Source: an uncultured Clostridia bacterium
Lineage (GTDB): Bacteria > Bacillota > Clostridia > TANB77 > CAG-508
Assembly (NCBI GenBank): GCA_963558405.1
Contig: CAUWGC010000003.1
Location: forward strand, 1 to 64,000
Direction of reading: 5' to 3'
DNA length: 64,000 bases
Shown one piece after another: positions 14,400-14,920 of the stretch. The notes under the pieces are model-generated. The model was not told where the DNA came from. It saw nothing but the letters and a program-made list of their open reading frames with translations, and made no database searches. Numbering within the stretch: the first letter of the stretch is position 1; each line of letters begins with the position of its first letter. The position numbers and the translations under genes were made by a program.

Positions 14400-14428
14400 G
14401 TATATTTTAAAAAAAATGATTCATACTA
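14400..14428 (+). promoter_or_regulatory. SigmaG-type (forespore) promoter
   Basis: GTATA-17 bp-CATACTA matches the Bacillus sigmaG consensus GHATR-17/18-CATWHTA. Confidence 0.5.
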
Positions 14429-14433
14429 TTATC

Positions 14434-14890
14434 ATAAGATTAATATTAGTTGAACGAAGAATTATCTTAGATCAATATGGTTTAATTTAATTCGAGCAAA
14501 GATTTATTAAAGTTTATTTATTTTTATAGATTTTAATAGGTCGGAGTTATGAGTATATTATTCGTTGAAATGCTATATCTCCTGTTTCTTTTATGGGTTA
14601 CCCTTAATCTTCTTTTTATATGGTTATAATATGGGTAATATATTTTAGTTAAGATTAGTTTTATATCTGATTCTGGTATTTTTTAAAAGTTCTTCCTCTA
14701 TTTTTTTAATACTAGAAAATGGTTGTTATTAGTCCTTTTAGGATGAATACAGTTATTGGTGGTGTATTACTAGTCGAGCGAATGATTAATATGTTTGGTA
14801 TATAGCTTATTTAAATAGTAATATTTATTAGGTTAAACTATTAGGCATATTAGTTTGAGTTAGATTAATATTAGTTTTATAAGATAATAG
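14434..14890 (+). ncRNA. Candidate large structured ncRNA (~450 nt)
   Basis: No ORF; the ends pair, and there are several internal helices that pair fully only with G-U wobbles on the + strand; bounded by a promoter and a terminator. Confidence 0.6.
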
Positions 14891-14920
14891 CGTGAATAAA
14901 ATTACTTATTCACGCTATTA
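14885..14920. terminator. Bidirectional terminator (gyrB / candidate ncRNA)
   Basis: TAATAGCGTGAATAA-loop-TTATTCACGCTATTA, 15-bp perfect stem. Confidence 0.8.

Follow-up and report, generated by a model that had tools for sequence, protein, structure and literature searches.

A large structured noncoding RNA next to gyrB in an uncultured Clostridia bacterium belongs to a widespread family and lies behind a forespore-type promoter motif

We analyzed a 64,000-nucleotide (nt) stretch of DNA, referred to here as the window, from an uncultured Clostridia bacterium (lineage Bacillota; Clostridia; TANB77; CAG-508; GenBank assembly GCA_963558405.1, contig CAUWGC010000003.1, positions 1 to 64,000 of the forward strand), with a focus on the 606-base gap at 14318-14923. 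The gap is flanked by two minus-strand genes, an M14 zinc carboxypeptidase gene at 13400-14317 (Pfam, E 4.1e-34) and gyrB at 14924-16843, in which all four GyrB domains are present. Positions 14434-14880 of its plus strand encode a large structured noncoding RNA (ncRNA), 447 nt from the first to the last base of its closing stem P1, given the strand-specific folding and the heavy covariation that we describe here. This bears out a first-pass annotation of the same DNA, which had proposed a large structured RNA at this place from the letters alone. The annotation had also seen no open reading frame (ORF) in the element, and indeed no plus-strand ORF longer than 28 amino acids (aa) was found in the gap. 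A small protein was rejected as the product of the locus, as the only ORFs present encode 24 to 28 aa; their conservation was not formally assessed. The RNA gene is single-copy in its own genome, and the RNA is about 450 nt long here and 366 to 482 nt long in relatives. We infer that its 5' end lies at approximately 14434-14437.

The plus strand of 14425-14925 folds to -135.8 kcal/mol, and none of 100 dinucleotide shuffles (mean, -91.6 kcal/mol; standard deviation, 4.9) folded equally well, giving the z-score that the first-pass annotation had called for a value of -9.0. The minus strand of the same stretch folds to -64.8 kcal/mol with a z-score of only -2.95, and this signal is owed largely to a terminal hairpin that is common to both strands. 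The asymmetry between the strands is consistent with many of the pairs being G.U on the plus strand. Covariation was assessed in an alignment of 17 full-length loci from 17 genera of the organism's own family, for which RNAalifold returned a structure of 127 pairs, 86 of them changed on both sides in at least one sequence; the first-pass annotation had proposed such a comparison with homologues. Standard pairs were formed in 96.0% of the cells of this alignment, compared to 38.7 to 43.6% when the partners were slid by one to three columns; the double-changed pairs numbered 86 versus 31 to 38 in these slid controls, the double-changed cells numbered 256 versus 42 to 51, and column shuffling attained none of the observed measures in 500 trials. 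The signal extends beyond these genera, with compensation at 91 of 108 predicted pairs in a 55-sequence alignment of the own family and a second family (f5) and at 117 of 134 pairs in a phylum-wide alignment of 23 sequences (covariation term, -42.7 kcal/mol). Several G.U pairs are invariant in the 17-locus alignment, and G.U pairs are likewise invariant in all 23 sequences of the phylum-wide one. Given that invariant G.U pairs mark the transcribed strand, the plus strand is the RNA strand, and the earlier remark that the helices of the element depend on plus-strand G-U wobbles fits both these pairs and the folding asymmetry.

The RNA is built around a single junction at which six helices meet, namely, the closing stem P1 and five arms that start with P2, P3, P4, P6, and P11, all on the plus strand. 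P1 is an 18-bp stem that pairs 14434-14451 with 14863-14880, which confirms the closing stem of the first-pass annotation; 8 of its 18 pairs are double-changed among the 17 genera, and its G.U pairs are invariant. Compensatory changes were found at 12 of the 16 pairs of the P2 hairpin (14459-14474 with 14478-14493) and at 14 of the 15 pairs of the P3 hairpin (14501-14515 with 14528-14542). The P4-P5 arm occupies 14551-14645, where P4 (14551-14566 with 14630-14645) is compensated at 11 of 16 pairs and P5 (14571-14578 with 14618-14625) at 3 of 8, and a lineage-specific insert whose length differs among relatives lies between the strands of P5. The P6 arm (14653-14775) is closed by P6 itself (14653-14659 with 14769-14775; 5 of 7 pairs compensated) and encloses two hairpins, a variable one at about 14671-14718 that is missing from many relatives and the conserved P7/P8 hairpin at 14718-14757, in which 7 of the 9 pairs of P7 show compensatory changes. 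The P10-P11-P12 arm (14777-14861) has compensatory changes at 12 of 16 pairs in P11 and at 10 of 13 pairs in P12 and is capped by a GNRA-type loop, which reads GUAA here. Three of the seven helices named in the first-pass annotation, P1, P3, and the variable hairpin, are therefore present in the conserved structure or in the minimum-free-energy (MFE) structure. The proposed GATTTATTAAAGTTT/AGATTTTAATAGGTC stem is P3 of the covarying structure, and the TTCTGGTATT/AATACTAGAA hairpin exists, but as a variable insertion of only some relatives. The other four were not kept, given that the bases assigned to ATGGTTTAATTTAA/TTAGGTTAAACTAT, GAGTTAT/ATAGCTT, TTATTCGTT/AGCGAATGA, and GTTACCC/GGGTAAT are paired otherwise in the consensus.

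The junction itself is repetitive. Across the wide alignment, every helix starts at its base with a G-C pair, followed by A-U or G-C and then by a U.G wobble, and this wobble is invariant in P1, P3, and P11. The linkers of the junction are 7 to 8 nt long; four read G-A/G-N-C-N-A-A (GAGCNAA-like), and the remaining two read GG-N-G-N-N-(A)A. Similar A-rich internal loops occur in P4 and P11, and several of the arms are capped by GNRA-type loops. Most families have UCGAAAGA or UCGAGAGA as the loops of the inner hairpins, where the home family has GUAA or GCAA. For the loop of the P10-P12 arm, the own family again uses GUAA or GCAA, and GAAA is seen from the second family outward. We know of no described RNA with such a layout, and none was found in the literature searched.

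We compared the locus with Rfam 15, whose 4227 models include ROOL, GOLLD, raiA, HEARO, introns, and riboswitches. At gathering thresholds, only tRNAs and a small signal recognition particle (SRP) RNA (57909-58005) were found in the window, and a search of the RNA region with lax filters at E<=10 gave six chance-level hits, five of which fell on the 3' hairpin, among them the best (E, 0.44), which was confined to this hairpin. The loci of other families were equally silent, with nothing found in nine at gathering thresholds and in ten at E<=0.1. The Infernal/Rfam check that the first-pass annotation had proposed thus gave no match at this locus or at any of the 19 examined in other families, in agreement with its having seen no signature of RNase P, transfer-messenger RNA (tmRNA), 6S RNA, or an intron. 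Identity with RNase P, tmRNA, 6S, or SRP RNA was rejected because each is located elsewhere in the genome: 6S RNA at C1:92897-93085 (106 bits), tmRNA at C1:122072 (163 bits), a type-B-like RNase P match at C18:9950-10283 (52.9 bits, under the gathering threshold of 97; E 9.5e-14), and the SRP RNA within the window. A divergent OLE RNA was rejected as well. The OLE model (RF01071) gave no match in the whole genome at E<=1 and none in the region at E<=10; the same model detects OLE at 284 to 427 bits in 26 of the 41 genomes sampled from the order, and in six of these relatives (G008, G012, G018, G024, G032, and G169), OLE lies on contigs other than the one that carries this RNA. As a separate observation, OLE was not found in this 100%-complete genome or in three genomes of the same family (G004, G048, and G069), and a shortened OLE "variant 1" has been reported for the TANB77 clade (PMC11332333).

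Taken together with its distribution, described below, these data make it virtually certain that the RNA represents a real, strongly covarying, and widespread family that is absent from Rfam 15. Whether the family is also new is a separate matter. The first-pass annotation had suggested a possibly undescribed class, and this suggestion has held up, given that there is no match in Rfam 15 and no description of such an RNA in the literature that was searched in full text, a search whose coverage left out most subscription journals. We consider it quite probable that the family is undescribed anywhere. The family could instead have been described already outside Rfam 15 and the literature searched, in which case it would be real and not new, and we judge this rather improbable. 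An RNA that occurs in approximately 15% of the sampled genomes of the phylum could have been met by large comparative screens, and a few ncRNAs read from sporulation-sigma promoters are mentioned for supplementary tables of C. difficile papers on transcription start sites and ncRNAs (PMC7438776). Sigma-assigned start sites of ncRNAs tabulated with PMC3789822 could likewise bear on novelty. Set against this are the same Rfam and literature searches, and CsfG is distinct from this RNA, with a length of 136 nt and CU-rich loops (PMC3574147).

At the DNA level, 14400-14925 has counterparts of 63 to 88% identity in 20 of 24 genomes from other genera of the own family. A covariance model of the 3' domain (R1; 167 positions) gave one match per genome in 104 of 151 own-family genomes, representing 38 of 50 genera, and, across the order, matches in 42/52 genomes of family f1, 8/33 of f5, 0/9 of f2, 0/52 of f3, and 0/4 of f4; nhmmer shows the eight copies in f5, the second family, to be full length. 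Another model (R2; 116 positions), for which both families supplied 5'-domain sequences, matched 22 of 151 class-sampled and 23 of 151 phylum-sampled genomes, with scores mostly between 60 and 81 bits, and the positive genomes belong to many other families and range from 1.8 to 4.6 Mb. Some of the larger genomes (G455, G287, G329, and G412) carry two to four copies of the 5' domain, which in G455 form two tandem pairs (C12:3436-3774 and C4:7739-8076). A degenerate pattern scan, with one genome per species, returned at least 120 stretches, and among the 80 matches listed, all were gut-type metagenome-assembled genomes titled Clostridia, Clostridium, Eubacteriales, Bacillota, or Lachnospiraceae, including Clostridium sp. 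CAG:571. The same pattern gave no stretches in viral contigs, although it recovers only 31 to 36 of the 55 known copies. A phage or mobile origin was rejected on this result and on the single copy in each positive genome of the family, an argument that is weak for the same reason.

The genes around the RNA differ between families. The 3' end of gyrB follows the RNA directly, in convergent orientation, in 17 of 17 own-family loci with full-length matches, whereas the RNA lies beside gyrB in none of the eight loci of the second family. A VirB4-like operon diverges from the RNA in most own-family loci and adjoins it in four of the eight second-family loci, and among 20 loci from other families, the only neighboring genes to recur do so in pairs of close relatives. 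Consequently, a conserved protein gene next to the RNA was rejected as the source of a partner. The adjacency to a peptidase and to an operon resembling a type IV secretion system, which the first-pass annotation had pointed to, is true here, as is adjacency to gyrB; it is specific to the order and not general to the RNA. Since the flanking genes vary in this way, the RNA locus is an independent, free-standing gene. We weighed whether it could instead be a cis-acting element that regulates gyrB in antisense or from its 3' end, serves as a leader for the peptidase gene or the VirB4-like operon, or belongs to the origin region. The constant position after gyrB in the own family and the frequent presence of the divergent operon would fit such a role. 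However, the RNA is opposite in strand to both neighbors and has its own promoter motif and hairpin, the Spo0A-box-like TGTCGAA sites of the region belong to the promoter of the divergent operon, and neither gyrB in the second family nor any other gene outside the order accompanies the RNA. The varying contexts largely refute the cis-acting reading, which we now regard as very improbable. In individual genomes, the RNA has other stable RNAs as neighbors: a large SRP RNA gene lies approximately 1 kb downstream in two related genomes (L217 and L219), a 16S rRNA gene adjoins the RNA on its upstream side in another (L223), and tRNA genes stand beside it in others. These may be clusters of stable-RNA genes.

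The promoter region upstream of P1 contains GTATA at 14400-14404 and CATACTA at 14422-14428 on the plus strand, separated by a 17-nt spacer, and the CATACTA -10 element ends five bases before P1, in line with the first-pass annotation, in which the RNA begins directly after this motif. In B. subtilis, the consensus for sigmaF and sigmaG promoters is a -35 element of G-H-A-T-R, a spacer of 17 to 18 nt, and a -10 element of C-A-T-N-H-T-A, and the motif at 14400-14428 agrees with this consensus, making it a candidate forespore (sigmaF/sigmaG)-type promoter. We defined a strict form of the motif, G[ACT]AT[AG]-N17/18-[CT]ATA[ACT]TA, which 49 of 55 close relatives retain, every time with a spacer of 17 (G[ACT]ATA-N17-[CT]ATA[AC]TA). 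The -35 element among these 49 is GTATA in 24, GAATA in 23, and GCATA in 2, and the -10 element is CATAATA in 30, TATAATA in 14, and CATACTA in 5. Among 18 distant relatives, 7 have the strict motif, compared to approximately 0.09 expected at a background of 0.073 per kb, and visual inspection shows near-matches in most of the other 11. Three classic forespore genes of this genome, namely, a gene for an alpha/beta small acid-soluble spore protein (SASP), spoVT, and ytfJ (identities from Pfam), have the strict motif 31 to 45 bases upstream. The consensus sequences of sigmaF and sigmaG are reported to be very similar to each other, and those of C. difficile and B. subtilis to resemble each other, with a G just upstream of the -10 element as a cue for sigmaF and an A just downstream as a cue for sigmaG (PMC3789822). 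The bases on both sides of the -10 element vary among the relatives of this RNA, and several of the GC-richer ones have G-rich runs before it.

The same real RNA could instead be transcribed by the housekeeping (sigmaA) polymerase or by a stationary-phase one in growing or starving cells, so that its tie to sporulation would be a phylogenetic coincidence; we consider this unlikely. The promoters offer some support for it, given that 14 of the 49 have TATAATA as their -10 element and 25 of the 49 have TT before the G of the -35 element, which places TTG in the -35 region, and sigmaA could read some of these. In addition, the strict motif occurs 28 times in this AT-rich genome (26.5% GC), which by our own estimate is about the number expected by chance. 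However, the -35 element retains the form G[ACT]ATA in 49 of 55 close relatives, the spacer is fixed at 17, and the first base of the -10 element is C in 35 of the 49. The motif also persists in GC-richer genomes where the -35 element is not preceded by TT, as in CCGAATA and GATGCATA, which does not fit the TTGACA box of sigmaA, and a sigma-70 scan found nothing above chance (5 found versus 6.0 expected).

At the other end of the RNA, a 17-bp hairpin at 14884-14921 appears in the MFE structures of both strands, between the RNA and the convergent gyrB, and probably serves as the terminator of both genes. The first-pass annotation had the RNA ending at a strong terminator. Its stem is indeed strong, but its U tail is poor, and a stricter terminator scan of 14300-15000 counted no terminator. 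In 44 of 55 close relatives, a simple finder detected a hairpin with a T-rich tail no more than 90 nt from P1. A hint of expression came from contigs assembled in two metatranscriptome studies of gut samples (four runs). One contig, which is 444 bases long and stems from a close relative (33 differences and 11 gaps), covers 14490-14895 plus 35 bases upstream, which is almost exactly the span of the predicted RNA and takes in nothing of gyrB or the peptidase gene; a 269-base contig covers 14627-14892; and an exact 174-base contig covers 14466-14639. Two contigs, one from each study, end at 14892-14895, which is a weak hint of a transcript end, given that inverted repeats also break assemblies. 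Most of the cells in such gut samples were presumably not sporulating, and the presence of these contigs there counts in favor of transcription by sigmaA.

The genome encodes Spo0A (375 bits; cutoff, 200) and SpoIVA (407 bits), as well as a SigG-like sigma factor (425 bits; cutoff, 457) next to a SigE-like one. In the phylum sample, SpoIVA was present in all 22 RNA-positive genomes, and the RNA was present in none of the 23 SpoIVA-negative genomes (hypergeometric probability, 0.019). In the own-family sample, in which RNA-negative status was partly taken from absence in the complete R1 match list, 100 of the SpoIVA-positive genomes carried the RNA and 34 did not, compared to 4 and 13 of the SpoIVA-negative genomes (Fisher's exact test, 5.9e-5). 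Both the RNA and SpoIVA are missing from two genera, g16 (0/5 genomes) and g37 (0/4). This joint loss within the family also speaks against transcription by sigmaA, although SpoIVA is present in 85% of the phylum sample anyway, and we regard it as supportive of a link to sporulation rather than decisive. In the course of this survey, the ATPase domain of SpoIVA was found in two adjacent, slightly overlapping pieces, divided near residue 107, in twelve genomes that represent several genera (G007, G042, G047, G055, G058, G064, G068, G084, G104, G115, G123, and G150), and in-frame TAG codons were found in the SpoIVA of G094, G095, and G146. The split could be a recurrent frameshift, an assembly artifact, or a recoding event.

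We infer, as the first-pass annotation did, that the RNA is expressed in the forespore; the conservation of the motif (49 of 55 close relatives and 7 of 18 distant ones), its position ahead of the SASP, spoVT, and ytfJ genes, and the way in which the RNA tracks SpoIVA all point in this direction, and we find forespore transcription reasonably probable. We hypothesize that forespore RNA polymerase, with sigmaG and/or sigmaF, would transcribe the RNA gene from GTATA-17-CATACTA and that transcription would end at the hairpin shared with gyrB. Transcribed in this way, the RNA would accumulate in the maturing spore. The most speculative step is that the repeated junction modules and the loop-capped arms may make the RNA a scaffold, which could hold a single protein in several copies or dock with itself and would act in spore maturation, dormancy, or germination and not on a neighboring gene; such a scaffold or multimer mechanism is an idea about which we are doubtful. 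As a whole, the explanation that we favor, and hold to be somewhat better than an even bet, is that of a free-standing, forespore-transcribed, trans-acting RNA that forms a widespread family of endospore-forming Clostridia-like bacteria. A bolder version would be a new class of large bacterial RNA whose synthesis is confined to the developing spore. Its six nearly identical helix bases and linkers would build a pseudo-six-fold hub, which would seat a ring-shaped or multicopy protein or would self-assemble through the GNRA-capped arms into a higher-order particle, and the dormant spore would store this particle and rely on it for dormancy or for the restart at germination. We put this forward as a conjecture that is unlikely to hold in full.

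Several observations, along with the sigmaA-like features of some promoters, weigh against forespore transcription and a role in the spore. The strict motif fails in 11 of 18 distant relatives. Contigs from RNA libraries show neither strand nor level, DNA may contaminate such libraries, and the parts of the window that they do not cover are uninformative. The 34 SpoIVA-positive genomes of the family without an RNA match mean that the RNA is not needed by every spore-former, and four SpoIVA-negative genomes carry it, though these are singletons in SpoIVA-positive genera and one of them is 68% complete. The genera that lack SpoIVA have the smallest genomes (0.6 to 1.1 Mb), and genome reduction alone may account for the joint loss; the probabilities given for both samples are overstated because related genomes are not independent. 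With respect to a protein partner, Hfq was not found in this 100%-complete genome, and it was rejected as a ring-shaped partner for this organism; no neighboring gene is conserved outside the order.

The divergent operon lies between gyrB and gyrA (6141-8579) and occupies 9591-13390 of the window on the minus strand. Its first three ORFs encode 191, 310, and 274 aa, the second and third of which match the VirB4/TraC/TraG P-loop models of Pfam, and they are followed by genes for a ParA/CpaE-like protein of 437 aa and a 252-aa protein without a family. The three ORFs together look like one VirB4/TraC-type ATPase in pieces, and the split is retained across genera and in the second family. Two TGTCGAA-like (Spo0A-box-like) sites precede the operon at about 13300-13390, as does a TTGACA-17-TAAAAT promoter. 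Spo0A-type boxes, which appear as TTCGACA upstream of the RNA in many relatives, were considered as part of the RNA promoter and rejected; we assign them to the divergent operon because they lie beyond the M14 gene, at approximately 13370-13390 on the minus strand and just upstream of TTGACA-17-TAAAAT. The M14 peptidase gene stands between the RNA and the VirB4-like operon in only a subset of relatives (e.g., L002, L005, L011, L014, L039, L049, L056, L057, and L068), and in the others, the operon adjoins the RNA directly; the gene at 13400-14317 looks like an insertion. Elsewhere in the window, the plus strand of 744-2444 encodes a 566-aa protein with a weak match to TrwB_AAD_bind, the DNA-binding domain of type IV coupling proteins (E 3.1e-7), upstream of DnaD/DnaB-like and DnaI/DnaC-like replication genes.

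To our knowledge, few large and widely conserved bacterial RNAs are still unclassified, and OLE, GOLLD, ROOL, and raiA each began a line of work. Within an entire phylum of spore-formers, roughly one-seventh of the genomes sampled carry the RNA described here, many uncultured gut Clostridia among them, and the junction of this RNA has an unusual internal repeat. The only conserved forespore ncRNA that we know of is the small CsfG. If the link to the forespore is true, the family would offer a testable handle on RNA functions in spore maturation, dormancy, or germination, the processes that govern transmission of gut anaerobes. The two covariance models and their alignments would permit annotation and curation of the family.

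Among known RNAs, OLE resembles the one described here in being large, ornate, and highly conserved, in its occurrence in anaerobic Gram-positive bacteria, and in being common in the same order, and it differs in architecture and gene context. An adjacent oapA gene is a mark of OLE, and the neighbors of the RNA here are the M14 peptidase gene and gyrB. The ROOL, GOLLD, and raiA motif RNAs are, like this one, orphan large structured RNAs of bacteria. ROOL, GOLLD, and OLE are reported to form RNA-only multimers by cryo-electron microscopy (10.1101/2024.12.08.627333), and disruption of raiA is reported to affect sporulation in a Clostridium (PMC10861870). However, our RNA matches none of the Rfam models of ROOL, GOLLD, or raiA, and the repetition of its helix bases around a single six-helix junction sets it apart. 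6S RNA, which is abundant and regulatory, shares with it a long terminal stem that unites the 5' and 3' ends, although 6S is a bulged rod and this RNA is branched. The closest analogue in regulation is CsfG (the reverse strand of the "ylbH" motif), which is reported to be a sporulation-specific ncRNA conserved in Bacillus subtilis and other endospore formers and is named as being under sigmaF/sigmaG control; it is 136 nt long, is rich in C and U in its terminal loops and between its helices, and associates with Hfq (PMC3574147). No Rfam model matched our RNA, which includes any that covers ylbH/CsfG, and Hfq was not found in this genome. Compared to this small and CU-rich RNA, the family described here is 366 to 482 nt long and gathers six helices on one junction through G/A-rich linkers.

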